The notes: a model not told the origin generated them from the letters alone. Counted from the stretch's first letter, positions 753 through 24,905 are shown. The stretch is DNA of 64,000 nucleotides from Candidatus Latescibacterota bacterium (GCA_965243025.1 CBDETY010000003.1:4096001-4160000), one strand, 5' to 3'. Numbers and translations: made by a program.

Positions 753-863
753 TTCTTTCCCTTATTCTTTCACGTGGAAAAAAGGCTCTGGAGAATATCC
801 TTGAATTTGCTGTCGCGAAAGGCGGCCCAGAGAAAACCGGTATTTCCGGGGAATGGCATCCGG

Positions 864-884
864 GAGCAACGTTTTCGCGGCGGC
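864..884. repeat. Possible left-arm relic of an attC-like site
   Basis: GAGCAAC-GTTTTCGC matches the array's left-arm pattern (compare GCCCAAC-GTTTTCGC at 6339). No right arm is visible. Confidence 0.35.
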
Positions 885-1142
885 TTAGGGCTTGCATCCA
901 AGGTCGGCAAGTTGCGAGTCAATATGAGCGACACCTTTCCATTCGACCTGAGCGTAGTGGTAAACATGGGTGAAGTGAAACCGCTCGATCAAATACGTCA
1001 CTCGATTGTTGGTTCTTCCATTCTCGCACCACGGCATCTCTTTCAAGCCCCCCAGGATTCCGCGGAGGCATCTCACGTGACTTTCGAGAAGAGTTACGTT
1101 GTCACCTCGATCAAGACCCTCCTCTACTTTGACATCATTCAC
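885..1142 (-). pseudogene. Probable 3' remnant of a cassette gene
   Basis: 85-aa ORF in cassette orientation that ends at the att relic. Its 5' part overlaps the plus-strand promoter. Confidence 0.25.
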
Positions 1143-1158
1143 CCGATAGGCTTAGACT
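1129..1158 (+). promoter_or_regulatory. Sigma70-type promoter
   Basis: TTGACA (1129-1134), 18-bp spacer, TAGACT (1153-1158), directly upstream of the structured leader and CDS 1288. Confidence 0.7.
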
Positions 1159-1162
1159 TCCC

Positions 1163-1287
1163 ATCAAGTGCCTCCAGGGAGGCCCTCGGTCCGCGGTAAG
1201 GGTCCCAGACCCACCCTCCTCTCTGAAATGCAGACCTTCTTTCTGCCTGGCTTCGCGGACAACAGGCGTTTCTGAAAGAGGGTTGTC
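1163..1287 (+). ncRNA. Putative structured cis-regulatory leader RNA with a pseudoknot and sequestered RBS
   Basis: Hairpins GCCTCC/GGAGGC, GGGTC/GACCC and GCCTG/CAGGC. Long stem 1213-1231 pairs with 1266-1283 and covers the RBS. GTCCGCGG (1189-1196) is complementary to loop TCGCGGAC (1253-1260). Confidence 0.6.
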
Positions 1288-1992
1288 ATGTCTCCAGTTC
1301 TACCTCGCAATCCGCATCTCCAACCCATCAGACGCCTCGCCAAGGGGTTGCTGGGTGCGCACCAGGAGCAGACCGAAGCTGCCGGCGAACGTATTGCCGA
1401 ACACCACCCTCGGTTTTCCGGAAAAACCTCGGGGCAAGCGCTTTCCGAAGAATTCTCGCTTCAGGACGCACAGCTGGTCGTGGCGAGAGAGCACGGCCGG
1501 GCCAACTGGTCTCAGCTGGTTGGCGTGGTCGAACTGATGCGCGGAGTCCATGGGGTCTTCGTAGAGGGAAGACACGTTCATCTGGTCGCCAAGGATGCCG
1601 TCCAAATGGACGCTTTTGCAGGACTTTTGATCCCGCACTATGGGCCGGATCAATTTGGGCTTTTGGGACACTATTCTCCAGGAGAAAAGACCGAGTCTGC
1701 TCTGGGACGGTCCATCCACCTTATCTCTGAAAGCAGAGTTCTCGTCTCTGAGTACCACACCCTTGGCCTCGCCCACTTGCTTGAACACCGCCGCCGGCCA
1801 GACGGGCCGTTTGAAGTTGACAGGCTTCTCGCGCGTACACAAGCAATCGTTCCGAAATCTCTGTCCAGCAGCAGGCCGGTGCTGCTGGGCGTAAAAGAGC
1901 AGGAGGCCCAATCAGGTTTTGATGAAGTGCGCGAGATAAAAATACAACAGCTCTGCAGCCTCTACGGTTCGGTCAGCGAGGTGAATCTTTAG
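1288..1992 (+). CDS. Hypothetical protein with a small N-terminal helical domain of the type seen at the N-terminus of many ankyrin-repeat proteins
   Basis: LPRNPHLQPIRRLAKGLL...FSLQDAQLVVAREHGRANWSQL motif, RBS GAGGG. Only plus-strand gene in the array. Confidence 0.75.
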   Translation: MSPVLPRNPHLQPIRRLAKGLLGAHQEQTEAAGERIAEHHPRFSGKTSGQALSEEFSLQDAQLVVAREHGRANWSQLVGVVELMRGVHGVFVEGRHVHLVAKDAVQMDAFAGLLIPHYGPDQFGLLGHYSPGEKTESALGRSIHLISESRVLVSEYHTLGLAHLLEHRRRPDGPFEVDRLLARTQAIVPKSLSSSRPVLLGVKEQEAQSGFDEVREIKIQQLCSLYGSVSEVNL

Positions 1993-2459
1993 AGGGCAGA
2001 CGTTGCCAAGCTGTCAGGCATCCTGCCGCGGATTTCATCGGCGACCTTTTCCAAAACGTCGACGGAAACCAGATTTCTCGGCGACGGGACACTGTAGTGA
2101 CCGGGAAAATCCGGATCCCCAAACTGACATCCCGCAAATTCCCGAGGCGCCGCGAATCGAGGAATCACGTGAAAATGGACATGCTTGTCCTGGTTCTGAA
2201 GGAAGGCGTAGTTGATATGAGAAGGCGCAAAGGCTTCTGTCAGTGCCTTTGTTGTCCGTTTCAATTCGCGATGCAAATCAAGCCACTCAGTTTCAGAAAG
2301 GTCAGGTACGGACTCCTCGTGGCGATTCAAGGTGAGAAAGCACTTCCCGAGGAGGTTCTGGTTAAGGTTGACAATCAGCTTCCAGCAAGCGCTCTCCATC
2401 ACAATTGGACCAAGTGACGGGGCGCACAGACCACATACAGCAGGGGTCTCTTCTCGCAT
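1989..2459 (-). CDS. HIT family protein (cassette gene)
   Basis: CxxC near the N-terminus and HVHFH histidine triad. Start moved to MREETP. Confidence 0.85.
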   Translation of the reverse strand: MREETPAVCGLCAPSLGPIVMESACWKLIVNLNQNLLGKCFLTLNRHEESVPDLSETEWLDLHRELKRTTKALTEAFAPSHINYAFLQNQDKHVHFHVIPRFAAPREFAGCQFGDPDFPGHYSVPSPRNLVSVDVLEKVADEIRGRMPDSLATSAL

Positions 2460-2460
2460 C

Positions 2461-3045
2461 TTATTTCCCCTCCAGAAATACCTGCCTCTTCCTGTTTGCC
2501 ATTCTCGACAGTGGCAAACGGAATTTTTCCAATGACCTACGGAACCGAATCTGACGTCCCTTGTCTCGAACGCCGCCATCGCGTTTCCACCCCATCGCCT
2601 CGTAGAAGCCGATCCCGAGTTCATAACCCTCAACGGTCCAGACTACGGCTTCGTCGTAACCGTCCGCAACGAGACGACGAAACGCGAGCGAGGCCAATGT
2701 TTGCCCGATCCCGAGGCGCCAGTACGAGGGGTCAACGGCAATGGTGTCGAGTTCCCCCAATCTGGCGTCAACGGGATCCCGGCTGGGACCGATGCCGACA
2801 AAACCGACAACCCTACCCGTATGCTCTGCGACCCACCACCGGTGCGGGGCGGACTTGGCAAGATCGCCACGCCAGCGCTCCACGAGCTCCGAGGTAACGA
2901 TCCGGTCGGACTGCTCGATGAGTTCTCCGAATCCTGCATTCCAGGAATCGATATATACGAGTGTCACGACCTCGGCGTCCTCAGGAGTGGCCGGTCGGAT
3001 CGTTGGTGAAAGTTTCTGCGAACGTTTGTATTCCAATTTGCCCAT
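2461..3045 (-). CDS. GNAT N-acetyltransferase (cassette gene)
   Basis: IRPATPEDA, IAVDPSYWRLGIGQTL, GFYEAMGW. The C-terminus runs up to the HIT start with no att site between them. Confidence 0.85.
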   Translation of the reverse strand: MGKLEYKRSQKLSPTIRPATPEDAEVVTLVYIDSWNAGFGELIEQSDRIVTSELVERWRGDLAKSAPHRWWVAEHTGRVVGFVGIGPSRDPVDARLGELDTIAVDPSYWRLGIGQTLASLAFRRLVADGYDEAVVWTVEGYELGIGFYEAMGWKRDGGVRDKGRQIRFRRSLEKFRLPLSRMANRKRQVFLEGK

Positions 3046-3061
3046 CGTCTCATCTTTTGTC

Positions 3062-3090
3062 ACAAAACGTTGCCTCCCCTTGCGAAGCCT
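3062..3090. repeat. Half attC-like site (left arm only)
   Basis: ACAAAAC-GTTGCC...GCGAAGC immediately upstream of the GNAT start, then unrelated sequence. Confidence 0.45.
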
Positions 3091-3217
3091 CCTCAGCGAA
3101 CTGGGCCGCTGTGGCCGTCGTGCTCGAGGATCCGGTGGAAGAGCGCCGGGTTCGTTTTCAGAAGTGGCTCGAGCCTCCTGGCGTCACCGGCTTCGACGGA
3201 AGCTCCGTGTTCGTACT

Positions 3218-3579
3218 CAGGTAGCCGAGGCCGGCTCGGCGACCCCGATGCCGGCGTGGTCGTTGCCGTCGTAGAACATGAGCGTCGGCCCCTCGTGGTG
3301 AATGAGTCGATCGACCCTTCAGGGGCGGAGATCGATCAGCGGATCGTCGCCGACCATCGTCCAGGTCATCGGATCGTCGAGGGACGCCTCCGCCAAGCCG
3401 ACGCGACGCAGCTTGTTTCTGTCGCTGAAGTACTGCTCGCCGTGGAAGTACATGAGGTACCGATCGTTGGTCCGGGTGATGCACGGCGCCGATGGGCGTT
3501 GGTCCCACGTGTCGGCGTCTTTGGCCGGAACGACGAGCCCCAGCTTGCGCCAGGTCTGTTCAGTCATCTCCGCCATCAC
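3218..3579 (-). pseudogene. Internally deleted and frameshifted beta-propeller glycoside hydrolase-like gene
   Basis: N-terminal part WRKLGLVV...WDQRPSAPCI...YLMYFHG...VGLAEA...PLIDL. A C-terminal part LMFYDGNDHAGIGVAE* lies in another frame, and the middle is missing. Confidence 0.6.
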
Positions 3580-3678
3580 GGTCCTTCACTTATTGGCAGC
3601 GCAGGCATCACCATTCCATCGGTGCTCCCGTCCGGTCTTGCTTCTGCTGTTACTTGAAACCTTCTCTATTGATTCAAT

Positions 3679-4206
3679 CTATTCGAAATCAATTTCGCTA
3701 GCCGCCTTGACCTGAATGATGCCGCTCAGCTCAGCGTTTACCTCTTCAATGATTTGTGCAGCGGTAGCTCCCTCCGTTCCAAAAGTGCTGTGGACATCCC
3801 CAACGAGGATCACGTCATATTTCAGATCGGAGGCACTCAGAGAATTCGCCTTTATGCAAACTTCTGTCTGCATTCCAATGACAAAAAGCCTCCCTATCTC
3901 CCTGCATTGAAGTTGCACGTGCAGATCGGTGTTTGCGAAGGCGCTTGGTTCAAACTTCTGAACAACGAGATCGCCGTCTTGGGGGCGAAGAGACGGATGT
4001 ATCTCCCAACCGAAAGTACCGGGCTCATCCGGCTCTCCCTTCTCCCCGTTATTCTGCAAGTAGACTACGAGAATGCCATAGTCTCGCGCCCTCCGAATCA
4101 GTTTCTCCAACTGTTTGAGAAGCCTCTCTCCCTTGTAAATTGGAAAGGACTCATCAAACATGTTGACCTGAGCATCGACAACAAGTAAGGCAGTATTCAA
4201 GCTCAT
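3679..4206 (-). CDS. Isochorismatase-like cysteine hydrolase (cassette gene)
   Basis: TALLVVDAQ, QKFEPSAFANTDL, GMQTEVCI catalytic motifs. Confidence 0.9.
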   Translation of the reverse strand: MSLNTALLVVDAQVNMFDESFPIYKGERLLKQLEKLIRRARDYGILVVYLQNNGEKGEPDEPGTFGWEIHPSLRPQDGDLVVQKFEPSAFANTDLHVQLQCREIGRLFVIGMQTEVCIKANSLSASDLKYDVILVGDVHSTFGTEGATAAQIIEEVNAELSGIIQVKAASEIDFE

Positions 4207-4326
4207 GGAGTCAGATTTCGTTTCCGATTCCGCCAAATCGGATTCCTGAAAGGCGAGGCCCCAAATACGCCGCAGGGTACCGCACGGCTAAATTGCCGTG
4301 GCGAACCTGCTGCAAGACACAATTGG

Positions 4327-4833
4327 CTAACCTTCCTCGGTGAAATCCGATGAGAGAGCTCCCAGGAATCCAATGCCTTTGTGCGGATCTCTGTATTGAG
4401 TCAATTCGTGATGTCCGATCATGAAGCCCTGAGACTCCCAGAACGTCAGGGCGCTGGGGTTGTCGCGGCGTACATTCAGGTCAATCCGATCAACACCCAA
4501 GCCGTCGGTGATTTCAGTTACCGCTCGTACCAGGAAGGACCCAATGCCCTTCCGGCGCTGCGTTGGGACAACGTAGAAGTCACTGATTTTCGCACTTGTT
4601 CCACAAATTGAAAATGAAACGAATCCAACGGGGGATCCTTCGCTGAGGCACCAGAAAACCCTTGGTTCCGGACTGGAAAGGGGAAACCGATCTGCGAAAT
4701 ACGCATCGCGACGATCCGACCACCGTACTGTATCTGCAGTTGGCATCGTCTCCGACCAGTAGGCATCAACTAGTGGCCAAAACCTGTCCTCATCGGAAGC
4801 AAGCACCTGCTCGAACCCAAGGCGAACAGTCAA
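4327..4833 (-). CDS. GNAT N-acetyltransferase (cassette gene)
   Basis: FYVVPTQRRKGIG, NPSALTFWESQGF. Confidence 0.85.
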   Translation of the reverse strand: MTVRLGFEQVLASDEDRFWPLVDAYWSETMPTADTVRWSDRRDAYFADRFPLSSPEPRVFWCLSEGSPVGFVSFSICGTSAKISDFYVVPTQRRKGIGSFLVRAVTEITDGLGVDRIDLNVRRDNPSALTFWESQGFMIGHHELTQYRDPHKGIGFLGALSSDFTEEG

Positions 4834-4865
4834 ACTGTGTTTCCTCTCACATGAGGCCCCATGCC

Positions 4866-4968
4866 AGCTAACGTTTTCTCGCCCTTGAATCGCGAAGCGG
4901 TCTGGCGAAGATCCGAATGGGGCAAGGTCATGGTGTTAATCATGTGTTGGAGCACTGGGCGGTCAGGT
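4866..4968. repeat. attC-like site with two stacked right arms
   Basis: AGCTAAC...CGCGAAGCG...GTTAATC (4935-4941), followed by a second end GTCAGGT (4962-4968) that matches the 5' end of the 4990-5412 cassette. Confidence 0.75.
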
Positions 4969-4989
4969 GGGAATCCTCGTCGCCGATCA

Positions 4990-5412
4990 TCAATCATTCC
5001 CCTGGCGCGTACTCCGATAGCCAGTTCCCGGGTAACGCCCAGCCAAATCGGCACTCTCCGTGTCTGAAAGCATTTCCGTGTCGGCCAGAGGAACTTCTTC
5101 AACAAGCTGCACCTTGAGTACTCTCATAGTCTTCCAGTGGGTGCGATCGGTACCCTGTCGTTCTTCGAGGTCCTGATCGTCGAGAGGTTCTGCGACAACG
5201 TAAAGAAATCCAGGGATCTTCCCATCGTGGCGAACCGCCGTGAAGTCGTCGTCAGAGACAGTTATGCGAGTTGGCCTGTGCGAAAAGGCTCTTGCGAGCT
5301 CCCTGAACGGAGTAACCCAGCTACCGGGCAGAAGAGTATCCAGTTCTTCGGGCGACCCGTGAAACCAGGGTCTATGTCTTGATGCGTCCCAAACGCTCAT
5401 GGGCTGGGTCAT
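4990..5412 (-). CDS. Putative ADP-ribosyltransferase-fold (Arr-like) protein (cassette gene)
   Basis: WFHGS...SWVTPFRELARAFS...GFLYVVAEP resembles the Arr FYHGT/YFT/IYIVEP motifs, and the size (140 aa) fits. Confidence 0.5.
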   Translation of the reverse strand: MTQPMSVWDASRHRPWFHGSPEELDTLLPGSWVTPFRELARAFSHRPTRITVSDDDFTAVRHDGKIPGFLYVVAEPLDDQDLEERQGTDRTHWKTMRVLKVQLVEEVPLADTEMLSDTESADLAGRYPGTGYRSTRQGND

Positions 5413-5435
5413 GACTCCTTCATCGCCCCAAATTC

Positions 5436-5524
5436 ACCTGACCTTCTACGAATTGCGGACCTGCGAAGCAGGTTGCCGAAGGACAAGGCGCCCCCTGGGC
5501 GATGCACAAGCCGATCAGTCATCG
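5436..5524. repeat. attC-like site, degenerate right end
   Basis: ACCTGAC left end, internal ACCTGCGAAGCAGGT and GGTTGCCGAAGG motifs shared with other sites. Confidence 0.7.
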
Positions 5525-5604
5525 GCTGAGGGCTTCTATCAAGACTCTTTACCCCACCCGAACAGGACACGGGCTTTTTTCGCCGCGTGGAGTCATTCTC
5601 ATAA

Positions 5605-6309
5605 TCATGTCAGGTGATAATCCACACCATACTGGATCAAGCCTAAGCGTCGAGCCAATCCCTGGGAAGCCAGATTTTCCCACGATGTACTGTAAAGCGG
5701 GACGAGGTCAAGTTCACGCACTGCAAGGGCCCACGCAGCGACAGCTGATACAGCGTAACCCCGCTGGCGGTAGATCTCCAGCGTATCAACTCCTGCCTCA
5801 TGCGCCCTCCATGATGAGCGGACACTTTGGCAAATCGACACGGCTTGGGAATCCTGGACAACCGCCAACCAGGGCCATCCACTATCCAATTCCGGCACCA
5901 TCTTGGCAAAGTTCCCCCTCAGAAGCCCTGCGTTTTCGACTGATAGCCGAACAACATTTGCTGGCGGATCGAGGCAATCCGGAAAGCGGTAAGCGGGCCC
6001 TCCCCACACCCGTTCAACCGGGGCATGGCCATGGAGGATGTCCTGGAATTGGCTGTGACCTCTTGGGAATTTCCGGGAATCCATAAGCACCGGCTCGGCG
6101 GCGGCAGCTTCCTTCAGGGAAGTAACCAAATTTTCAGGAAGGTCATTTCGGAATAGGCATATCGAACCTTCCCTGGTTCGCCCGAAGAAGAAACGGGGAG
6201 CTGGACCAGGATCCCCACCAGGATCGTTTATCCCTCGAAGACGCCCATTTCCTTCAGACGTGAACAGCGCCTCAACGTGTATTTCCATCAGTTCCCTATC
6301 TGACACCAT
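5605..6309 (-). CDS. GNAT family acetyltransferase (cassette gene)
   Basis: EAGVDTLEIYRQRGYA, YSTSWENLASQGLARRLG. Confidence 0.85.
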   Translation of the reverse strand: MVSDRELMEIHVEALFTSEGNGRLRGINDPGGDPGPAPRFFFGRTREGSICLFRNDLPENLVTSLKEAAAAEPVLMDSRKFPRGHSQFQDILHGHAPVERVWGGPAYRFPDCLDPPANVVRLSVENAGLLRGNFAKMVPELDSGWPWLAVVQDSQAVSICQSVRSSWRAHEAGVDTLEIYRQRGYAVSAVAAWALAVRELDLVPLYSTSWENLASQGLARRLGLIQYGVDYHLT

Positions 6310-6338
6310 GCTCCATTACCGATCCAGTCATCCATACC

Positions 6339-6423
6339 GCCCAACGTTTTCGCCGTGTCCGAACCGCCACAGCAGTTGCGCCAAGGTGCGACAGCCCTAA
6401 ACCCGGGCAGGACAGTGTTATGT
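6339..6423. repeat. attC-like site
   Basis: GCCCAAC...GTTATGT. The stop codon of the upstream hydrolase (6418-6420) lies inside the core site, as in integron cassettes. Confidence 0.85.
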
Positions 6424-7146
6424 GCTGTGGGCAAATCTCTTTGCAAACTCCCTCAAGATATCTTTGAGCAATTCTTCATTCCCAACCCAAATCTGATGAT
6501 CGGCGGTCTCAAGAAACTCCATCTGTGCGTTCGGCAACAGCTGAGCAATTTGCTCGACCGGCCAACTCGGCCTGATATCCTGTTTGCCATAAACGAAAAG
6601 TGCAGGTACGGTCAATGATGCCAGGTCCCGAAACAGCGTTGGGTGTTTGATATATTCTTTCCAAGACCTGCCGACCTGCGTGTTCATCTCCATATTTGGG
6701 GGATATGCCAGCTCTGGTGGTGCCTCAAGCCCCTGATCGCGCCGCTCGCTGTAAATTCGGTGCCAGTCCCGGTCGTTGTGTACCCGACCTCCTGAAAGAC
6801 AAATGAAGCCATGCACATGCTCGGAAAATCGCATCGAATAGGCCAACGACAAGTCCGCCCCAAATGAGTGACCAACCATGATCCACCGATCGACACCATA
6901 GTGATGTCGAATGGCGTGCAAGTCCTCAAGGCAGGTTTCAAGTGTATACGTCCTCATCTTGTCAGACCGGCCACATCCTCTGTGATCGAAGCGAATCACT
7001 TTGCACAGATCATCGAGCATTCCTGCGAGGGGTCCAAGATAGTCGCAGCAGCCAGAACCACCACTGCACAGCACCAACGGCACACCTCTCCCCTGCGCTA
7101 TTGTCCACAGGCGGAAATCTCCAACTTCAACGAACGACTCAGTCAT
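6418..7146 (-). CDS. Alpha/beta hydrolase, proline iminopeptidase-like (cassette gene)
   Basis: FDHRGCGRS, GHSFG nucleophile elbow, C-terminal His. Confidence 0.9.
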   Translation of the reverse strand: MTESFVEVGDFRLWTIAQGRGVPLVLCSGGSGCCDYLGPLAGMLDDLCKVIRFDHRGCGRSDKMRTYTLETCLEDLHAIRHHYGVDRWIMVGHSFGADLSLAYSMRFSEHVHGFICLSGGRVHNDRDWHRIYSERRDQGLEAPPELAYPPNMEMNTQVGRSWKEYIKHPTLFRDLASLTVPALFVYGKQDIRPSWPVEQIAQLLPNAQMEFLETADHQIWVGNEELLKDILREFAKRFAHST

Positions 7147-7173
7147 TTTGGGGAAACACCTAAATGTCCATTG

Positions 7174-7261
7174 CAAATACGTCTCTCGAATTCCCGAACC
7201 TCGCAGCGGTGGGCTTAAGCGCTCTTGTCGTCCTCCGAAGGCGGGACTTGCGGAATTAGCG
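7174..7261. repeat. attC-like site (degenerate)
   Basis: CAAATAC-GTC...ATTAGCG with internal GCA/GAA-loop hairpins. The stop of CDS 7256-7789 lies in the right end. Confidence 0.65.
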
Positions 7262-7789: not shown

Positions 7790-7797
7790 GTCCTAGT

Positions 7798-7861
7798 CCG
7801 AACCGCGAATGCAGTGGTGCGAGGGGCGGCAGCGCCGGAGCCGGGTACGGAGGTGTTACCT
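7798..7861. repeat. attC-like site lacking its left arm
   Basis: CCGAACCGCGAATGCAGTGGTGCGAGG...GGTGTTACCT. The tail GTTACCTGCCCGTGGCAGT resembles CGTACCTGCCTGTGCCAGT at 12220. Confidence 0.6.
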
Positions 7862-8002
7862 GCCCGTGGCAGTCTTGATGCCGCGTCGCATTCTCGCGAC
7901 AAAAGCCCAGGGAATTTCCCTGAACTGCGACTTGCCCAGCTCACGTTCCTGCTGTGGCTCGAATACGGGCCCGGCAATACCATCCAGAACCAGACCGGAC
8001 TC

Positions 8003-8029: not shown

Positions 8030-8035
8030 CGTGAC

Positions 8036-9249: not shown

Positions 9250-9252
9250 TTC

Positions 9253-17619: not shown

Positions 17620-17704
17620 GAAGGCGATGATTTACCCTCTATGTTTCAAGGGCGACCCTTAAGAGAATTCGACCTAACCTCCATCGAATTCTCTGAGATC
17701 GAGT

Positions 17705-18502
17705 CTATTGCTCCCCTTCCTCCCGCTTTAGCATATAGACTGTGAACTCTCCGATTAATCGAAACCCGATATGTGTGGCCAATCGTTCAGATACTGTGTT
17801 TCCTGGCCATGTATGCCAAGTTGGTTCCAATCTTGCGGCGAGACAACCCTCAATGTATGCGGCAGTTACTTGCGTGGCATATCCCTTGCGGCGGAATGGC
17901 TCGCCCGTCCTCAGTTGAGGATCCGCCCAACCTGCGCCGACGAGAGCTGTGAAGCAAAAACTGGCAAGGTTATCCCCCTCAAAGAGGCCGTAGCCCAGAC
18001 CCTCTCTACAGAAATGCTCTACTGAGTCGAAATACCAGAGAATCCCCGACTCCGAATCTTGATCAATTAAGTCGGCAAGTGACTCATTGATGCGCTCTAT
18101 CCTACAACCGGGCGCCAGTTTCGTCGGGGTAGACATCTTTTTGTATGAGTTTTCGTCGAACCGGTAGGATAACATCTGGTATGGCTCGGACGAATCTCTC
18201 ATGAATGTCCTCAGGCGATCCTGCCAATATCCAGCCGTCCCACATAGGTGAAGCACGTCATTGTCGATCTTATCAAACAGTTCTCGCTCCAATTCATCTG
18301 AGAAGGACTCATTTTCACCTCCCACATAGGAGTATCCTGTGGAATGACAGACGACCGTAGCGCGGGGTGCTATTGCGTCGTCAACGAAAATCCTACCGAT
18401 CTGCTTCTGCTCGATCACGCTGTGTGGTAGCGAAGGCCACATTTCGATTCCCTCAAACAGAGGAGCAACCCGCTGAAAATTAGCCGGGGTGAGTTCGATC
18501 AA
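17705..18502 (-). CDS. GNAT family acetyltransferase (cassette gene)
   Basis: TGEPFRRKGYA, NTVSERLATHIGF. Confidence 0.85.
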   Translation of the reverse strand: MIELTPANFQRVAPLFEGIEMWPSLPHSVIEQKQIGRIFVDDAIAPRATVVCHSTGYSYVGGENESFSDELERELFDKIDNDVLHLCGTAGYWQDRLRTFMRDSSEPYQMLSYRFDENSYKKMSTPTKLAPGCRIERINESLADLIDQDSESGILWYFDSVEHFCREGLGYGLFEGDNLASFCFTALVGAGWADPQLRTGEPFRRKGYATQVTAAYIEGCLAARLEPTWHTWPGNTVSERLATHIGFRLIGEFTVYMLKREEGEQ

Positions 18503-18531
18503 TTTTTTTGCCCGTTAGGGTCAAGGAGGGT

Positions 18532-18562
18532 AAACGCCGCAGCGGGAATGGACGTGTCAGCA
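18532..18562. repeat. Half attC-like site (right arm only)
   Basis: CGCCGCAGCGGGAAT...GTCAGCA. Resembles the right arm of the 22541 site and matches the cassette start GGCAGCAGAC. Confidence 0.55.
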
Positions 18563-18575
18563 AACCGTTTCAGAT

Positions 18576-19250
18576 TCACCCAATGATAAGCGAATTGGGG
18601 GAAGATGCCGGGAGACCTGCGTCGAACCGCCGATAACCAAACCTCTCAAAGGTCTCTGATTCGTACGCCCAGACAACCTTCTCCTCGTCTTCATTGAAAT
18701 GGTCAAAGAACGTCCCCGGCGGCCGGATTCCTCGCTCAAGTGCACGTGGGTACTCCGGCGCGTCGTCGCTGACGAATGGCAACTCTTTGAGGCACTGCGG
18801 AAGACGCTCGTATAATAGCACCTGTGTTACACCTGCGGCCTTGCAATAATACCACTGATTCATCACACTCTCTGGGCAATCGCCACCCCCAAGTTGTGTC
18901 CCGTCCTTCTCAAGCGTGTAGCCCCGAATCCGTTCCTCCAGGGACTCCGGGTGCTCCTTCGGAAGCTCGACTTGCTCTCTCAGACTTTCGTGTGGCTCAC
19001 GGTCTCCCAAGCTTTCGTATTTCCCTTTTCCCCCCCAAGGAATAGCGAACGCTCCACTCGTGTGCCGGTCATAGGGATTCCGAACGATGGTGAAGATCAG
19101 GTAACCTCTAGCCTCTTCCGGAACGACCATGTCGTGGTGCCCCCCCACGGTTTGCCCCTGGTAGTGAGTGCAGAGCCAACGAATCATCGACTTCGAACTG
19201 GTCCTGGGGATGCCGATGTAGGCATATCTGAGGAAATGAGAAAGGACCAT
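18576..19250 (-). CDS. Sulfotransferase-family (Sulfotransfer_2-like) protein (cassette gene)
   Basis: YIGIPRTSSKS and FTIVRNPYDR PAPS-binding motifs, GGAGG RBS. Confidence 0.75.
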   Translation of the reverse strand: MVLSHFLRYAYIGIPRTSSKSMIRWLCTHYQGQTVGGHHDMVVPEEARGYLIFTIVRNPYDRHTSGAFAIPWGGKGKYESLGDREPHESLREQVELPKEHPESLEERIRGYTLEKDGTQLGGGDCPESVMNQWYYCKAAGVTQVLLYERLPQCLKELPFVSDDAPEYPRALERGIRPPGTFFDHFNEDEEKVVWAYESETFERFGYRRFDAGLPASSPNSLIIG

Positions 19251-19281
19251 ATATCGCCTCCACTGCCAATGCTTGAATGTC

Positions 19282-19378
19282 TGCTGCCGTTTATCGGTTT
19301 GCGGACCCCGAGTTTGGCGAGGGGTTGCCGAAGGCCAAAGCCCCAAAAGCCCCGCAGAGCAGCACCGTGATGTTATTC
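19282..19378. repeat. attC-like site
   Basis: Internal GGTTGCCGAAGGCCAA. The right end GTTATTCGAT matches the cassette start GTTATTCGAA. Confidence 0.8.
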
Positions 19379-19389
19379 GATGTGATCAA

Positions 19390-19725
19390 TCACGCAACCC
19401 TGACTTTGTCGTTAACCGCTGCCTCTCCCTGCAAACCTGGCGTATGGATGACAAAGTGGTAATGGTCCTCGGAACAATACAAGAACGTGTGCACCTCTCC
19501 AGGTTCGATGATGACGCCAGATTTCTCGGCAAAGCTAAACTCCTCGCCATCGACAAGCATCGTGATGTGGCCGTGCGCAAACAAATAGATTTCGGTGGTA
19601 GACCTGTGATAATGGGGTTCGTTTATGGCGGTGTTTGCATATCCGATTGAAATGTTCAGATCTGAGTCCCAAGGTCCAACAAACCAGCCCTTTTCCATTT
19701 TATTATCCGGCTCAATGATTCTCAC
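19390..19725 (-). CDS. Cupin-domain protein (cassette gene)
   Basis: PHYH...EIY...IEPGEVHTF. Confidence 0.85.
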   Translation of the reverse strand: MRIIEPDNKMEKGWFVGPWDSDLNISIGYANTAINEPHYHRSTTEIYLFAHGHITMLVDGEEFSFAEKSGVIIEPGEVHTFLYCSEDHYHFVIHTPGLQGEAAVNDKVRVA

Positions 19726-19754
19726 TTGCTTTGGCCTCCAGCTCGTTGCATTTC

Positions 19755-19833
19755 GAATAACGTTTCAGTGCCCCGCATCGCGAAGCGGTTGGGCGAAGGG
19801 CCGAATGGCCCAAGCCGGGGCACCATGTTAGAG
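19755..19833. repeat. attC-like site (best preserved)
   Basis: GAATAAC...GTGCCCCG/CGGGGCAC...GTTAGAG. The upstream gene's stop lies within the core. Confidence 0.9.
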
Positions 19834-20406
19834 GACGTGGCTTCCCTCAACGCTCGCTGGAAATCGTCTATCGGACTCGTTCGCATGAGATGCAAGCCAG
19901 GCCTTCTTTGTCAGTAAGAACTGACGTGCTGCTTCCCCCTTGAACTTGGAACTATTGTAGACAAACCCTTCAGTCTCCTGAAAGCCGTTTTTTTCGAGGA
20001 CACGGGCTGATCCAGGATTTCGCCTTAAGCAGGCGGAGCGAACGGTTTCCATTCCGAGCTCGAGGAAGGCATACCGTAGTGCCAAAGAAACGGCCTTGGT
20101 TGTAATTCCCTTTCCCCAGTAGGCCGAGGCAATGGCGTAATCGCATTGGATGCTACCGCTCTCCAAATCACTTCCCCCTAATTCAACGACTCCTATCATC
20201 TCTCCGTCGGCAACGATGGCAAAGAAGAAACCCGCTCCGTTTCGGCGGGCATCAACGGCCTGTTCCACAAACCTTGCAGCGCCATCCTCTGGATAGGGCT
20301 CGGGAATCGTAGTGGTTCGTGCTACCCGCTCATCAGAGGCGTAACGTTGGACCGCCGGTTCGTCGCCAATCCGCAGTGGCCGGATTGTAACCTTTAGTTC
20401 TGTCAT
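19828..20406 (-). CDS. RimJ/RimL-type GNAT (cassette gene)
   Basis: YWGKGITT, NPGSARVLEKNGF. Confidence 0.9.
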   Translation of the reverse strand: MTELKVTIRPLRIGDEPAVQRYASDERVARTTTIPEPYPEDGAARFVEQAVDARRNGAGFFFAIVADGEMIGVVELGGSDLESGSIQCDYAIASAYWGKGITTKAVSLALRYAFLELGMETVRSACLRRNPGSARVLEKNGFQETEGFVYNSSKFKGEAARQFLLTKKAWLASHANESDRRFPASVEGSHVL

Positions 20407-21143
20407 CGTCTCCTTCCCATGTCCTCTAACTGATTGCCATTCACGAAGCCGCGTAGCGGCTGTCGAGGGATCTTACACTGGGCCTCAAGGTGGCGAAGAT
20501 CGTCCTGATCCAGACTGCAATCGTTGCTGTGGACGTACGAATCCAGATCCATTAGAATCAATCGATGAAAACGAGCATCCAGTGCTCTCAATCCCCACTC
20601 TCCGGCCTCTATCTTGGTGCAGAGACGGCGTTCCGCCAAGGTAAATGCAACGCGGCAAAACATCAGCGCAGGATTCTTGAAGTGGGTCCGTATCTGCGGA
20701 ACAACGTGCCGAATGCACTGCCGCAGTAAAGGCCACGGAACGCGTTTCAGAATCCTGTTGTGAGGTGTACCGAGAAGATCCCTCCCTGATTCAAAAATAT
20801 CTTGCCTCAACAAGAGAAAATCTTTGCTACCATCAGGCTTGAGGACAATTGTATTGTTCATCTTGAGAAGGAAATCAACAGGAGTGGGGAAAACGTCGGC
20901 GTTGATATGGTCTATCGTTGCTGCTGTTATGTCGTAAGACAGAGACTGTGATTTTACGTGTTCCAGGAGATGCACCCTTTTCTCCGACGGAGTGGGACGC
21001 TTCGTGACAAGAAGAAGGTCAACATCACTCGTCTCAGGATTGCCAGACTCCCGAGCGCGTGAGCCACCCATCCAAACCGATTCCAGTTCTCCTTCGTAAA
21101 TCTCACCGAGTCCCTCCACAAAGCCATCTATTGCACTTCTCAT
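20403..21143 (-). CDS. Nucleotidyltransferase, aminoglycoside adenylyltransferase (AadA/DUF4111)-like, with C-terminal read-through
   Basis: GS...SDVDLL NTase motif and CRVAFTL...TKIEAGEWGL C-terminal domain. The last ~20 aa are encoded by an att relic. Confidence 0.75.
   Translation of the reverse strand: MRSAIDGFVEGLGEIYEGELESVWMGGSRARESGNPETSDVDLLLVTKRPTPSEKRVHLLEHVKSQSLSYDITAATIDHINADVFPTPVDFLLKMNNTIVLKPDGSKDFLLLRQDIFESGRDLLGTPHNRILKRVPWPLLRQCIRHVVPQIRTHFKNPALMFCRVAFTLAERRLCTKIEAGEWGLRALDARFHRLILMDLDSYVHSNDCSLDQDDLRHLEAQCKIPRQPLRGFVNGNQLEDMGRRR
20424..20465. repeat. Half attC-like site inside the end of a CDS
   Basis: GTCCTCTAAC is the exact reverse complement of GTTAGAGGAC (19827-19836). 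It is followed by the AGCCGCGTAGCGGCT hairpin. Confidence 0.8.
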
Positions 21144-21257
21144 GGCAAGAATTACCGGGGAGAAATGAATCGGGCTCCTGTCCGACCTCTATCTAACATC
21201 GAGGAAGCATATCCTGGAGTGATGTCAATATGGCCAGCTTCACTTATATGCGATGAC

Positions 21258-21339
21258 ACCTAACGTTTCAGTGCCGCCGAACCGCGCAGCGGTTGGGCGA
21301 AGGGGCTCTTGTCCCGAAGCCGGGGGCACGGTGTTACAT
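21258..21339. repeat. attC-like site
   Basis: ACCTAAC...GTGCC/GGCAC...GTTACAT, internal GCGGTTGGGCGAAGGG. Confidence 0.9.
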
Positions 21340-21376
21340 GAAGTGCGCTGATACCCTGCGATATCGGATCCGATGC

Positions 21377-21958
21377 TTAACCGCTTCCTATGCCTGAAAC
21401 AACGACGCAAACAGCACTGGCAGTGTCGATATGGGTCAGATAGTAGTCTTCCGCTGCCCTCCATCTCCGAATCCATTCGTCTGTGTTTTCACCTCGCTTG
21501 ACCAGCCTATCCAAACATTCGGCCTTGGGAGTGTCGACGAAAATGGAGAAGCCATAGAAGTTCCTCAATTCCGGCCGATAAGAATAGACCCCATCGATCA
21601 GTATGATGCCCTCAGCCGGTTGGTCAATCCACTCCGCCAGCTGGTTGATCCCCCAATCATAGCGCTGGTAGCGAGTTCGATCTCCACCCGATAAAGGTTT
21701 AAGGAGTTCACTTCGCATCCTTACCCAATCAAAATACCTCATGTAACCATCTTCAGGCGTTAGAGCCCTTCTCTCAGACTCCCCCATTGGAGTATAGAAG
21801 TCATCCCCGTGAACGATTGAGATGAGATTACATGTCTCGCTTAGTTTCCTGGCGATGGTTGACTTTCCAGCTCCGCCGGGACCATCGAGTGCGACTACGA
21901 GAAGGCTATTCGAGCCCAATTCCGAGACAAGCCGCGATGAGAGAACATTAACGTCCAT
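21377..21958 (-). CDS. Uridine kinase-like P-loop kinase (cassette gene)
   Basis: VALDGPGGAGKST, HGDDFY, LIDGVYS. Confidence 0.85.
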   Translation of the reverse strand: MDVNVLSSRLVSELGSNSLLVVALDGPGGAGKSTIARKLSETCNLISIVHGDDFYTPMGESERRALTPEDGYMRYFDWVRMRSELLKPLSGGDRTRYQRYDWGINQLAEWIDQPAEGIILIDGVYSYRPELRNFYGFSIFVDTPKAECLDRLVKRGENTDEWIRRWRAAEDYYLTHIDTASAVCVVVSGIGSG

Positions 21959-21998
21959 GTCGTGTCAGCGTCTATTGCAGATGTCGATCAAGCATTTC

Positions 21999-22082
21999 AT
22001 ATATCGTTCCGGGCGGGCTGCGAACCCGCGCAGCGGGTTGGTGCGAAGGCCAATGGCCGGTCCGCAGCCCGGCGTAGTATGC
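21999..22082. repeat. attC-like site
   Basis: ATATATC...GGGCTGCG/CGCAGCCC...AGTATGC, internal AACCCGCGCAGCGGGTT. Confidence 0.8.
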
Positions 22083-22108
22083 GGCGTTTCTCACGCCCTT
22101 TTTACCCC

Positions 22109-22474
22109 TCAACGAATACTTGAGGCACAATCCAAAAAGGTCTCTGCATCCAAATCGAAACTGGGAGTATGGAGGAGGAGTAGAGTCGCGTCTTCATCGG
22201 ATGAATTCTCGTATGAAAAACTTTGACCTTGCTGGACGAGACAAAAGTCGGCGCCTTCGAGCCGATACTCCTTCCCCTCTATCGTGAAGAGGACTATTCC
22301 ATTCAAAACGTAGTAGTACTTGTCAGAGCGCTCCGACCTTGCCTTCCGATGACCTCTGCCAGGACCAACTTTTATTTTGGCAAGCGAGGAACTGATATTC
22401 ACACCTGAGGTGTAGTCGAATATCTGAAGGCCTTCGAATTCAATCGGAGCTACCGCCGAAGAGTTCACTACCAT
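22109..22474 (-). CDS. Cupin-domain protein (cassette gene)
   Basis: KYYYVLNG...IEGKEYRL...GQSFSYEN beta-barrel pattern. Confidence 0.8.
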   Translation of the reverse strand: MVVNSSAVAPIEFEGLQIFDYTSGVNISSSLAKIKVGPGRGHRKARSERSDKYYYVLNGIVLFTIEGKEYRLEGADFCLVQQGQSFSYENSSDEDATLLLLHTPSFDLDAETFLDCASSIR

Positions 22475-22540
22475 TTGTGGGTCCTTGATGGCACTGGGGT
22501 TGGAATTTCAGAAGTCCTTAGAGGACGTAAATTAAATGCC

Positions 22541-22630
22541 GTATAACGTCTCACAATTCACGGAGTCGCGAATGCGACTTGCCGCAGCCCCAGCGCCGAG
22601 AGGCGCGTAGCGGGAATTGCTGTGTTATAT
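22541..22630. repeat. attC-like site
   Basis: GTATAAC...CAATTC/GAATTG...GTTATAT with several internal mini-hairpins. Confidence 0.9.
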
Positions 22631-22643
22631 GAAGTGGAGGACA

Positions 22644-23219
22644 TCACTTGCGTTCAGCCATTCGATCGAAGGCATTCGGACGGCTTCGGGTGTTCCAAGC
22701 ATCGACTACAGCTGCTGCGATAGCTTCGCTCGGCTGCGTCGAGTCGACCTCCAGATCGTACTCGATGAAACTGTGAACTATGTGAAAGTCCGCTCTGGCT
22801 TCTCCAGGTCCCCGGTCTCCTCTGGTGCGCTCCCTTCGCTCTAGCTCTGAGAGCGGACAGTGCACCCCGACGACGAAAACATCAAAAGCGGAAAGAAGAT
22901 CTAACAAATCTGACAACCACTCCTCGGTCTCGACTATGTGGTCAACGATGAGATTGTTGCCTGCACCGGCCAAAACCGGAAGACAACGGTGAAACCCATC
23001 GAATACCGCTGGCCGCATGGCTGGCCAATCGAGTTCACGATTGAGTATTCGGGACCATGGCAGAGCGTTGGAATCACGCAGATGGTCAAACGAAAAATGC
23101 CAAAAAGGAACTTCCAAGGTTTGCTGGAGGAGACGTGCGAGCGTCGACTTTCCTGCACTTGATGCGCCGTTTATGAGAATGATCTTGCCCTGGTCTCGAT
23201 CGTTATCCAAGTGTATCAA
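22644..23219 (-). CDS. Chloramphenicol phosphotransferase (CPT)-like kinase (cassette gene)
   Basis: IILINGASSAGKST, GNNLIVD, VGVHCPL..LERRE..RGDR, YDLEVDST. Confidence 0.85.
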   Translation of the reverse strand: MIHLDNDRDQGKIILINGASSAGKSTLARLLQQTLEVPFWHFSFDHLRDSNALPWSRILNRELDWPAMRPAVFDGFHRCLPVLAGAGNNLIVDHIVETEEWLSDLLDLLSAFDVFVVGVHCPLSELERRERTRGDRGPGEARADFHIVHSFIEYDLEVDSTQPSEAIAAAVVDAWNTRSRPNAFDRMAERK

Positions 23220-23248
23220 GAATCCTGTTCAGCTTTTTAACTCATGTC

Positions 23249-23347
23249 ATATAACGTTACGCCGGTTTGCGAACGCCGAGTCAGTCGAGGCGTTGCCGAA
23301 GGCCAAGACGCCCGAAGGGCGGCGCAGCGCAAAACGTGCTGATATTT
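23249..23347. repeat. attC-like site with a GAT core
   Basis: ATATAAC...GCCGAAGGC, GCCCGAAGGGC, GCGCAGCGC...GATATTT. Confidence 0.85.
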
Positions 23348-23374
23348 GACGTGGGCAAGGTCTATAGATTGCTG

Positions 23375-24157
23375 TCAAAAAAGAATTTCGCCCCGCAGAT
23401 AGGTTACTGCCTGACCTCCGATCTCGACGCGATCTCCGCGGTCTTCACAATGCAAAACGCCACCACGCTCTGATACTTGCTTCGCCGTCATCCTATGTTT
23501 GTTTAGGCGAGTCGACCAATAAGGAATCAACGTGGTATGGGCTGAACCCGTCACTGGATCCTCGGGTATCCCCGATTGCGGAGCGAAAAATCGCGAAACG
23601 AAATCCACCTCATTCCCCGGGGCTGATACGATTATTCCGCGGGATTGAACTTGCTTGATGCGGGCAAAGTCAGGAGATAGGTTGCTAACTTCCCTCTCTG
23701 AATCGAGAATGGCGAGAAAATCAGCGCCACCTCGATAGAGTTCCAATGGTTCCCTGCCGAGCCCCTCGCAAAGATCACTTGGACAATTGTCTACCGCGGA
23801 AAACTGATCAGTTGGAAAGTCGAGCCAGATACGACCCTTTGACTGTCGCACGCGAAGGGGCCCAGACCGGGAATCGAATACAAGACTCTCTTGATTGTCC
23901 TGTTGTTCGAACAGGACATGGGCGGCGGCCAGGGTCGCGTGGCCACAAAGATCGACTTCAATCGTAGGCGTAAACCAACGAATGGAGATCGGGTCGGAGT
24001 TGCGGAATACGAAGGCAGTCTCGGCAAGGTTGTTCTCTGCGGCAATGTGCTGCATTGTGGTTTCTGGAAGTAAATCATCGCAAAGAACGATAGCAGCCGG
24101 ATTTCCTGAGAATGGCTGTTCGGAAAATGCATCGACTTGGTAAATTGGGAGTTGCAT
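23375..24157 (-). CDS. PhzF family isomerase/epimerase (first cassette)
   Basis: QVDAF...GNPAA, NLAETAF, EVDLCGHATLA, EDPVTGSAH. Confidence 0.95.
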   Translation of the reverse strand: MQLPIYQVDAFSEQPFSGNPAAIVLCDDLLPETTMQHIAAENNLAETAFVFRNSDPISIRWFTPTIEVDLCGHATLAAAHVLFEQQDNQESLVFDSRSGPLRVRQSKGRIWLDFPTDQFSAVDNCPSDLCEGLGREPLELYRGGADFLAILDSEREVSNLSPDFARIKQVQSRGIIVSAPGNEVDFVSRFFAPQSGIPEDPVTGSAHTTLIPYWSTRLNKHRMTAKQVSERGGVLHCEDRGDRVEIGGQAVTYLRGEILF

Positions 24158-24182
24158 CACCAATCCACTTCTCTTGCCCTAT

Positions 24183-24195
24183 GTCATATATCTGA
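24183..24195 (-). other. Putative attI-like junction (5' boundary of the first cassette)
   Basis: Minus-strand GATATATGAC matches the first cassette's 3' core GATATTTGAC, and no attC body lies upstream. Confidence 0.65.
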
Positions 24196-24223
24196 TTGCA
24201 TCCGAACAAATGGTTCGGATAAT
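24196..24223 (+). promoter_or_regulatory. Putative integrase promoter with an overlapping palindromic operator
   Basis: TTGCAT-16 bp-GATAAT. A perfect inverted repeat ATCCGAAC-N5-GTTCGGAT (24200-24220) fills the spacer. Confidence 0.55.
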
Positions 24224-24410
24224 GATCACTGGATGGTACTTACCTGAAACGATGGTACGTGTGGGTGTGAACATTCGCAACCATTTCTTCCGTTCGCTGG
24301 GGTCGGCCTAACTCGTTGCGACTGTGACACATAGCCCGATCTCCGATCCCTGGTGCGACTGGCACGGTTTTCTCTACGGCAGGGCTGACTTCCCACTTGG
24401 AGAAACCCGA

Positions 24411-24905
24411 ATGCGGCGCTATCGGAGACACCGCGACCTGTCCGGCGACGAAGTCGCCATCCTCAACCGGTTCGAGTCCGAGCTGAAGCTGAGGGGGTAC
24501 GCGAGGAAAACGCAGAAGTCCTACATGGGTTGCGGCCGGCGATTCCTTCAGTGGAAACGGGACTTCCGCGGCGAACGGCAGAACCAGGTGCGATCAAGCG
24601 TACAGGCCGTCGACGTGGCTGTTTCCCGGTGCCCGGGAAGGACGGCATCCACCGAACGATCGGTACAGAAAGTGTTCTCCAAGGCGGTCGCCGCCGCGGG
24701 AATCCGCAAGCGGGTGACCGTGCACACCCTGAAACACAGCTTTGCGACGCACCTGCTCGAAGGCGGGACAGATCTGCGCTTCACCCAGGAACTCCTCGGC
24801 CACAGGAGCTCGAAAACGACGGAGATCTACACCCACGTGCAGCGGAAGGACCTGGTGCGGATCGAGAGTCCGCTCGACACCCTGCTGGGCTCCGCCCGGT
24901 CCTGA
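24411..24905 (+). pseudogene. Tyrosine recombinase (integron-like integrase) pseudogene
   Basis: N-terminal [15 protein letters not shown] and C-terminal [36 protein letters not shown]...SPLD. The central region is deleted, [10 protein letters not shown]...RH (24601-24648) is out of frame, and the catalytic HxxR has become HxxK. Confidence 0.9.

Follow-up and report, generated by a model that had tools for sequence, protein, structure and literature searches.

Sedentary chromosomal integrons combine an integrase (IntI), an attI site and an array of attC sites, as in the superintegron of Vibrio cholerae or in the Xanthomonas arrays with a decayed intI gene. Integrons with a co-oriented ("inverted") intI, such as those of Treponema, likewise carry a canonical IntI with its characteristic insertion, the I2 helix region. 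Here we analysed a window of 64,000 nucleotides (nt), the whole stretch under study, from Candidatus Latescibacterota bacterium (GCA_965243025.1; G000:C3:4096001-4160000 in our numbering of genomes and contigs; 6.8 Mb in 3 contigs). An earlier note on this DNA, made from the sequence alone, had described an integron-like cassette array and proposed that it is served by a recombinase other than IntI. We confirm the integron-like array with a non-IntI-type tyrosine recombinase, whose group we term clade X, and our comparison supports the proposed interpretation. At a probability of roughly 0.7, clade X is the enzyme that built and ran such arrays, and the locus in the window is a fossil integron-type platform.

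The locus resembles sedentary chromosomal integrons in its divergent integrase-attI-array layout, with about 23 cassettes and a cargo of GNAT acetyltransferases, cupins and small kinases, in its attC-type sites with ..TAAC/GTTA.. cores and predicted folds, and in the putative G|TT crossover in attI. Homogeneous, lineage-specific attCs and decay of the integrase in some strains are further common traits. Unlike those integrons, its integrase lacks the IntI insertion, scores below the IntI cut-off and forms a clade of its own, and its attC family was not found beside canonical IntIs examined in the same phylum. A second point of comparison is rAID-1 of Bacteroidales, where a 'XerD-like' recombinase heads GC-skewed, co-oriented short genes with repeats recalling integrons (Ross et al., bioRxiv 10.1101/471110); the available descriptions term the mechanism of array formation unknown (10.1101/471110; follow-up 10.1101/2025.05.03.651265). 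The criteria for rAID-1 are a 5' recombinase co-oriented with at least two downstream low-GC genes and at least 44% identity to the B. fragilis reference recombinase. Both systems join a non-IntI tyrosine recombinase to an array of short co-oriented genes. Unlike rAID-1, with its upstream, co-oriented recombinase and immunity cargo, clade X is divergent from an array with a defined attI, canonical cores and metabolic or modification enzymes, the recombinases being compared by their descriptions. Clade X also fits the 'integron-like' simple tyrosine recombinases (Smyshlyaev 2021, PMC8138268) as an insertion-less relative of IntI; unlike clade X, the insertion-less members of that subgroup are given no link to attC arrays in the passages devoted to them, and the insertion is called essential there. 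We found no paper tying insertion-less IntI relatives to attC arrays, rAID-1 aside, although the supplements of Cury 2016 and Smyshlyaev 2021 may bear on priority. An array with an I2-less integrase clade is a variant of the known integron layout, and insertion-less relatives were already known as sequences.

The recombinase gene in the window survives only as a remnant. Within a mechanical open reading frame (ORF) at 24324-24905, alignment with six orthologues places the likely start at the ATG at 24411. A 386-nt deletion, recognised by nucleotide alignment with the intact gene of a congener, takes about 129 codons, including the catalytic Arg I and Lys (family-invariant R144 and K169), and shifts the frame. 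Positions 24596-24649 are out of frame within the ORF, until a 1-nt deletion restores the original frame. Read in the +1 frame, this segment matches the frameshifted peptide given in the earlier note, and the gene ends on ...IESPLD as stated there. Furthermore, the catalytic Arg II, which corresponds to R237 and is invariant in 44/44 aligned family members, has been replaced by Lys. The window copy of the integrase is dead on account of these three lesions, and the array is therefore a frozen record. The best NCBIfam family of the remnant is the integron integrase family TIGR02249, matched at positions 238-315 only (103.7 bits).

Because the deletion ends close to the region in question, the window copy could not show whether the insertion had been present; intact orthologues settle this point. 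The ten nearest database proteins (271-314 amino acids (aa); 73-94% identical to the C-terminal stretch of the remnant by BLASTP, over 38-45% of the query) all lack the middle of TIGR02249 and score 181-247 bits, below the cut-off of 265; the nine full-length ones match the family in two stretches and skip approximately positions 180-237. The intact same-genus orthologue of 293 aa matches TIGR02249 at 1-179 and 238-315 only, again below the cut-off, whereas the canonical IntIs of the phylum reach 274-488 bits. Aligned with the V. cholerae integrase VchIntIA (2A3V), residues 22-187 and 207-285 of the clade-X query correspond to chain positions 10-178 and 240-318, so that 19 residues (188-206) stand where VchIntIA has 61 (179-239). 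In an AlphaFold model of the same-genus orthologue (mean predicted local distance difference test score 83), a helix at 180-193 and a helix at 211-225 are joined by a short strand region, with no extra helix between residues 193 and 211. The best Foldseek match of the model in the PDB is nevertheless 2A3V (E 2.6e-17), with archaeal XerA behind it. In related genomes, canonical IntIs carry the stretch LP.AL.RKYP...W.WQ.(V/L)FP and end on ..SP(L/V/M)D, of which clade X has the tail only. By family profile, structural alignment and model, clade X lacks the roughly 42-residue IntI-specific insertion. The catalytic residues R, K, H, R, H and Y are invariant in 44/44 aligned members of the clade and family, and open frames of 293-327 codons with all of them occur in several genera. 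Judging by the sub-threshold TIGR02249 scores, standard integron tools would miss clade X.

The recombinase had earlier been read as XerD-like. The absence of the I2 insertion agrees with that reading, but the protein is not XerD proper, since its best family and best solved structure are those of an integron integrase and its ..SPLD tail is common with IntI. Against the XerC/XerD equivalog models the nine full-length proteins score 171-183 bits and the truncated P0010 132-134, below the cut-offs (335 and 330 bits) and below their own TIGR02249 scores. A separate and better XerD-like gene is present elsewhere in the genome (C3:6500035-6500871; 283.9 bits).

The second pillar is a family of attC-type sites. 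Between the genes of the array, att elements on the minus strand start with ..(C)ATATAAC and finish with ..AAAC GTTAnnn, with complementary arms. A structure drawn by hand on seven sites, with a 4-bp R box, an 8-bp L stem and two inner hairpins, has 76.9% of its cells paired compared with 28-45% when the partners are slid. A de novo covariance model, suggested earlier as a check, was built from this alignment (R1) and renewed from its 14 matches (R2); R2 was run with filters off on both strands of the 64 kb. It yields 15 matches with E <= 2.1e-5, all on the minus strand and between 4864 and 23348, and no other match of that strength on either strand of the window. Fifteen weaker matches (E 0.19-4.9) comprise seven inside the array on the same strand (E 0.19-1.9) and eight outside; since the latter are equally weak, the weak matches taken singly are not evidence. 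Counting by R2, nhmmer and eye, we arrive at approximately 24 whole or partial att elements, some 16 of them firm, in line with the more than 20 claimed originally. Stop codons inside core sites had also been noted: in three cases read by eye, a TAA lies within the R'' core (..TAAC), at 19828-19830, 7256-7258 and 6418-6420.

When 62 sites from the window and seven related loci were aligned, 88% of the cells were paired compared with 22-50% for slid partners, in an alignment fitted to the model and so favouring pairing. Compensatory changes occur at 18 of 23 pairs, and the observed values were reached by 0/500 shuffles. The family is 66-161 nt long (median 91), with consensus cores TAAC and GTTA and asymmetric spacers of 3 nt on the 5' side compared with 6 nt on the 3' side. 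An unpaired GT is conserved. DNA folds of single sites were partly convincing (z -3.2 to +1.5), the best being attC 2 (z -3.24; 0/200 shuffles fold as well). Other approaches were less useful: generic attC scanners, based on AAC...GTT cores and arm pairing, found 1-9 of about 20 true sites while shuffles gave similar counts, RNAalifold returned no structure when nine sites were simply aligned with MAFFT, and an nhmmer match outside the array at 53316-53365 (E 3.3e-5) was not confirmed by R2.

Arrays of this family accompany clade X elsewhere. We examined 20 kb upstream of each of six other clade-X loci, in genomes G002, G001, G020, G004, G016 and G012, which hold 5, 4, 6, 21, 5 and 13 R2 sites, respectively; each of these 54 sites is found upstream of the integrase, on the strand opposite to it. 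With the window, 7/7 clade-X loci, spread over five genera, are accompanied by cassette arrays. Between the integrase start codon and a sharp border lies a conserved region of 218 nt, the attI, beyond which no homology was seen in the seven-locus alignment. It contains a perfect palindrome, CCGAAC-N5-GTTCGG, with arms conserved in 7/7 loci, a candidate recombinase-binding core. The attI-like junction reported before is real, and comparison of the seven loci fixes its position at 24192|24191: 24192 is the conserved G of the core, and the first cassette starts at 24191. The six bases after this G are TTATGC, TTATGG, TTAGAG, TTAGAT or TTACCT, and ATATAT in two loci. Lack of conservation, together with the homology border at 24192, ruled out another candidate, GTTAGGC at 24305-24311. 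The first cassette varies from genus to genus, and two of the three same-genus genomes also differ from each other in it. A sharp attI border followed by differing first cassettes reads as the signature of repeated insertion at G|TT. Moreover, this genome and a congener share two cassettes only, with 90-92% identity; these are adjacent in the congener and three cassettes apart here, about 2.7 kb and about 11 kb from attI, respectively. Newer cassettes near attI with shared ones deeper are what an active integron would leave behind. The PhyH-family flank beyond the integrase is present in two of the six loci looked at, both of the same genus, and a different gene stands there outside the genus, so the association of integrase, attI and array persists across at least four chromosomal contexts.

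These data suggest a sedentary chromosomal platform of the integron type, made up of an integrase gene, a divergent attI and putatively promoterless cassettes, each ending in a folded attC-type site. In the relatives with an intact gene, the clade-X integrase would insert cassettes at G|TT of attI and, like IntI, could excise or shuffle them between attC sites. Recognition of its own attC family, which has TAAC/GTTA cores, asymmetric 3-nt and 6-nt spacers, a conserved unpaired GT and a three-way junction, would have to proceed in the absence of the I2 helix. We infer that the clade-X enzyme, rather than another, is the catalyst, and the attC sites may react as folded single strands.

Several points weigh against a clade-X-driven platform. 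The integrase copy in the window is itself inactive, and the evidence comes entirely from sequence and models. The seven loci are relatives and not seven independent events, and the backbone of the recombinase tree is poorly resolved. R2 was trained on its own attC family and is hence silent on the fit to IntegronFinder's general attC model. The absence of canonical IntI at E <= 1e-40 from the seven clade-X genomes refers to assemblies that are 91-96% complete and to a threshold that could miss decayed canonical intI fragments. There are also clusters of R2-family sites without a nearby recombinase (e.g. G000 C3:3028989-3072730), and therefore another enzyme may act in trans. In the literature, the insertion is held necessary for integron recombination (Cury 2016, PMC4889954; Ghaly 2022, PMC9668308; Smyshlyaev 2021, PMC8138268), it is treated as defining for integron integrases and their detection (Cury 2016, PMC4889954; Ghaly 2022, PMC9668308; Néron 2022), and the gain of the extra domain is presented as the step that enabled recombination of single-stranded attC (Escudero et al. 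2016, 2020). Four intermediate recombinases, each with fewer than three attC sites, were seen in one survey (Cury 2016, PMC4889954), and the insertion is described as incompletely conserved in the integron-like subgroup, so that insertion-less sequences are known (Smyshlyaev 2021, PMC8138268).

In the strongest alternative, a canonical IntI made the arrays and either disappeared from these genomes later or acted in trans from a plasmid, while clade X has another role, such as resolution or inversion at the palindrome. We scanned 168 genomes of the phylum and found canonical IntI above the cut-off in 17, some of them in the same bacterial family as clade X, which together with the I2 region being held essential in the cited papers and the attC clusters far from any recombinase speaks for this explanation. 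Matches to the R2 family number 22 in this genome and 13-73 in its relatives. A second cluster of the family in this genome, of low GC (C3:3028989-3072730), and a solitary site (C3:5716704-5716790) have no tyrosine recombinase that we could find near them; one cassette of the cluster is 76% identical to window positions 22078-22475. However, canonical IntI is found in 0/7 clade-X genomes, and the conserved region beside the clade-X gene stops exactly at the core of the cassette junction, with lineage-specific first cassettes. In addition, no R2-type attC was found beside 24 short canonical-IntI loci or within the 20-kb flanks of the canonical IntI of G010, and the corresponding flanks in G079 hold one such site. 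With the linkage of integrase, attI and array in at least four chromosomal contexts, this makes construction by a canonical IntI unlikely.

Clade X could also descend from IntI by secondary loss of the insertion and have lost cassette movement with it, all arrays being fossils. We built a tree of 71 rows, with 15 canonical IntIs, 13 clade-X proteins, 41 other insertion-less relatives (every sixth row of two lists of matches) and two Xer-like outgroup genes of this genome. In the careful tree, IntI (100/100) and clade X (100/97) are separate clades within a poorly resolved insertion-less radiation; grouping of the orthologues inside IntI, named beforehand as the outcome that would make this an ordinary integron, is not what we see. 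Clade X is placed outside IntI and may be its sister. Forcing X and IntI together improved on the quick tree by 10.3 log units and roughly equalled the careful one (approximately unbiased test, p 0.69), so that a joint clade is as likely as the best free tree; this, the ..SPLD tail common to clade X and the canonical IntIs of related genomes, and the decay of the window copy are compatible with descent from IntI. Nonetheless, IntI is monophyletic without X, which is at most a sister group, and several genera retain open frames with the full catalytic set. Cassettes have also turned over, with first cassettes that differ even among congeners and two congeners' arrays sharing two cassettes only. 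We regard such a descent, with all movement lost, as improbable. In an exhaustive search of representatives (4237 clusters at E <= 1e-30), identity to the nearest non-X clusters does not exceed 57%, and most match over a single stretch. At both protein ends, clade X comes nearer to IntI than any other kind of tyrosine recombinase.

That there is no cassette system at all, but a low-GC island with palindromes of the repetitive extragenic type beside a dead recombinase gene, gains something from the low-GC DNA that runs for about 17 kb left of the window without attC-type sites, yet it is hardly credible given sites confined to one strand between co-oriented ORFs, with ..TAAC/GTTA.. cores and covariation, which accompany the same recombinase and junction again in six other genomes and show no genome-wide spread in both orientations.

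Other insertion-less relatives head arrays as well. R2-type sites downstream of, and co-oriented with, an insertion-less integrase occur in G040 (five, E < 1e-4), G012:C1 (two), G010 (one) and G030 (one). A scan of one genome per species revealed 80 loci with 41-60% identity from many phyla. At three loci inspected closely, the downstream genes are short, co-oriented and functionally unrelated, with repeats in between. We tested 61 of the 80 for repeats, 19 mostly short contigs having been left out by eye. Short repeats in at least three copies were found upstream at 2/54 loci with enough flank and downstream at 17/32; at 9/32 loci, downstream repeats occupy at least two positions. In 29 of the 61, the contig ends less than 3 kb beyond the recombinase gene, and often the break comes within about 300 nt of the gene (loci L065-L144), which fits repeat-rich or strain-variable arrays that break assemblies.

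On the chromosome of a Desulfitobacterium sp. (L068:10981-20819), co-oriented short genes follow a 368-aa insertion-less relative and are parted by at least seven attC-like repeats with ATAAC and GTTAT cores and complementary arms, which read ..ATAAC..ATTCCCGAC...GTCGGGAAT..AACGTTAT. The phylum of Desulfitobacterium is reported to lack complete integrons in the relevant section of Cury 2016 (PMC4889954). Two Flavobacteriaceae loci (L135 and L136, 10800-20789) show arrays of unrelated short genes downstream of 375-aa relatives, among them an ApaLI-type restriction enzyme with its methylase and genes of unknown function, and repeated elements of the forms ..CAACACCGT... and ..ACCGTTGGCA; L135 also contains an exact duplication of at least 300 nt with copies 2665 nt apart. 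With their downstream, co-oriented arrays, the I2-less loci of G040, G012:C1, G010, G030, Desulfitobacterium and Flavobacteriaceae resemble integrons with inverted intI; unlike those, the relatives lack the insertion and the clade-X locus of the window has the classical divergent layout. At one locus (L031, G079:C1:2492064-2496008), a 314-aa insertion-less relative (~2738-3680, plus strand; C-terminus ..GIVSPLD) immediately follows a canonical IntI (locus 1501-2445) and has the same orientation.

Tentatively, and at slightly less than even odds, I2-less relatives of IntI might be working integron integrases, able to capture and shuffle cassettes at folded attC-type sites, in several phyla, including groups said to be without integrons; in that case, canonical IntI would represent a single specialised offshoot of an older, wider family of cassette-array systems, and the I2 helix a later refinement rather than the founding innovation. 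With clade X, nature provides a test case for the workings and the origin of integrons. Should the clade be active, many arrays filed as CALINs (clusters without an integrase) may have an integrase adjoining, surveys of integron distribution under-count, and a single cloned gene with its own sites would allow a direct test of how integrons originated. The value rests in the clade and not in this strain, the window copy being dead.

The array itself (Table 1) comprises 27 minus-strand ORFs (111-434 aa) from 4327 to 24163, or 30 when counted down to 1300, which agrees with the approximately 30 co-oriented short genes first reported. They are tightly packed, with intergenic stretches of 11-615 nt, and 21 of the 30 ORFs scanned have Pfam matches typical of cassette cargo, among them eight GNAT acetyltransferases, cupins and small kinases as well as hydrolases, an AadA-like nucleotidyltransferase and a NUDIX protein. 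The AadA-like and GNAT genes at 20403-21143 and 19828-20406 overlap and form one two-gene cassette; the peptidase S41 gene is likewise listed together with the NUDIX gene, with no attC between the two. Between the attC sites at 13545..13632 and 13397..13479, about 70 nt apart, no listed ORF of at least 50 aa lies wholly inside, and 13397-13632 is an empty or ORF-less cassette. Cupin cassettes 10937-11431 and 19390-19725 are paralogues (85% identity over 300 nt), i.e. one cassette that was duplicated or acquired twice. Left of 4864 only weak or partial att sites occur; the left border of 860 given at the outset matches the last of these.

Table 1. Features of the cassette array, attI and recombinase gene in the window
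Feature	Position	Strand	Evidence and remarks
Whole cassette array	860..24191	-	ORFs, Pfam, intergenic sequences; strong attC cover only 4864-23348
Decayed tyrosine-recombinase gene, clade X	24411..24905	+	Pfam Phage_integrase E 9.5e-19; Phage_int_SAM_4 N-terminus
386-nt internal deletion junction	24595..24596	+	Nucleotide alignment with intact same-genus gene; frame shifted
1-nt deletion, original frame restored	24649..24650	+	Alignment with intact same-genus gene
Catalytic Arg II to Lys (HTLRH to HTLKH)	24732..24734	+	AAA, orthologue AGA
attI region	24193..24410	.	Conserved across seven clade-X loci, five genera; 218 nt from ATG to sharp border
Perfect palindrome in attI	24202..24218	.	Arms conserved in 7/7 loci
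Putative attI crossover core, GATATAT here, GTTAnnn in five other loci	24186..24192	-	Homology border ..CAG|TTAnnn
attC 1	23247..23348	-	R2 29.9 bits, E 2.1e-5
attC 2 (ATATAAC ... GTTATAC)	22539..22631	-	R2 42.3 bits, E 8.9e-9
attC 3	21997..22083	-	R2 55.4 bits, E 2.5e-12
attC 4 (ATGTAAC ... GTTAGGT)	21256..21340	-	R2 84.7 bits, E 2.6e-20
attC 5, GNAT-gene stop TAA in R'' core	19753..19834	-	R2 84.5 bits, E 3e-20
Probable degenerate attC	19280..19365	-	R2 E 0.48, nhmmer E 0.13; weak
Possible degenerate attC	18495..18563	-	R2 E 1.3; alone not significant
Probable degenerate attC (ATATAAC ... CTATATA)	17532..17620	-	R2 E 0.19, weak; seen by eye
attC	15697..15793	-	R2 53.5 bits, E 8.2e-12
attC	13545..13632	-	R2 57.4 bits, E 6.8e-13
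attC	13397..13479	-	R2 66.7 bits, E 2.1e-15
attC	11372..11456	-	R2 46.3 bits, E 7.2e-10
attC	10965..11034	-	R2 47.6 bits, E 3.2e-10
attC 3' part	10280..10326	-	nhmmer E 3e-6; absent from R2 list
attC	9251..9348	-	R2 40.6 bits, E 2.6e-8
Probable degenerate attC	8513..8606	-	R2 E 0.26, nhmmer E 0.029
attC	7776..7862	-	R2 56.1 bits, E 1.6e-12
Probable degenerate attC, upstream ORF's stop TAA at 5' end	7173..7262	-	R2 E 0.35, nhmmer E 6.2e-5
attC, hydrolase-gene stop TAA in R'' core	6337..6424	-	R2 67.5 bits, E 1.3e-15
attC	5434..5525	-	R2 37.9 bits, E 1.4e-7
attC, leftmost strong	4864..4942	-	R2 63.8 bits, E 1.3e-14
Possible attC remnant	4211..4255	-	R2 E 1.9; alone not significant
Partial attC 3' end (..GGCAAC GTTTTGT)	3059..3077	-	By eye, without model support
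Partial attC 3' end (..CGAAAAC GTTGCTC)	863..879	-	By eye, without model support; likely last remnant
PhzF	23375-24163	-	Pfam
CPT-like kinase	22644-23219	-	Pfam
Cupin	22109-22474	-	Pfam
AAA/uridine-kinase-like	21377-21958	-	Pfam
AadA-like nucleotidyltransferase	20403-21143	-	Pfam
GNAT	19828-20406	-	Pfam
Cupin	19390-19725	-	Pfam
ORF without family	18576-19346	-	Pfam scan
GNAT	17705-18502	-	Pfam
Hydrolase	16618-17439	-	Pfam
HAD	15811-16563	-	Pfam
Peptidase S41	14389-15693	-	Pfam
NUDIX	13723-14376	-	Pfam
ORF without family	12272-13369	-	Pfam scan
His phosphatase	11480-12082	-	Pfam
Cupin paralogue	10937-11431	-	Pfam
His phosphatase	10383-10925	-	Pfam
ORF without family	9411-10238	-	Pfam scan
GNAT	8617-9315	-	Pfam
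GNAT	8036-8545	-	Pfam
ORF without family	7256-7789	-	Pfam scan
Alpha/beta hydrolase	6418-7176	-	Pfam
GNAT-like	5605-6309	-	Pfam
ORF without family	4990-5412	-	Pfam scan
GNAT	4327-4833	-	Pfam
Isochorismatase	3679-4236	-	Pfam
GNAT	2461-3063	-	Pfam
ORF without family	1989-2633	-	Pfam scan
ORF without family	1300-1911	-	Pfam scan
PhyH-family flanking gene, high GC	24910..25788	-	Pfam PF05721; chromosomal border on integrase side

The genome has a GC content of 70%, compared with 52-58% for the array at 860-24192. In 1-kb bins, GC is 0.52-0.62 until 24 kb, 0.586 for 24-25 kb and approximately 0.70 from 25 kb onward, which reproduces the GC step noted at about 24.4 kb. No tRNA and no Rfam family was found in the window. 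On the high-GC side of the integrase, PhyH-family dioxygenase genes form a tandem pair (24910-25788 and 25965-26846). The idea of an IS91-associated integrase was dropped, as the neighbour of the window gene is this PhyH gene and no transposase adjoins it. We also rejected an extension of the array left of the window to about C3:4079000, where there is no attC match (E > 0.6) and the genes are operon-like. Low-GC DNA (55-64%) runs for about 17 kb left of the array (G000:C3:4079000-4096000 and window positions 1-860) and carries overlapping minus-strand genes in an operon-like arrangement, one of them of the mandelate-racemase family; this stretch may be a separate island abutting the array.

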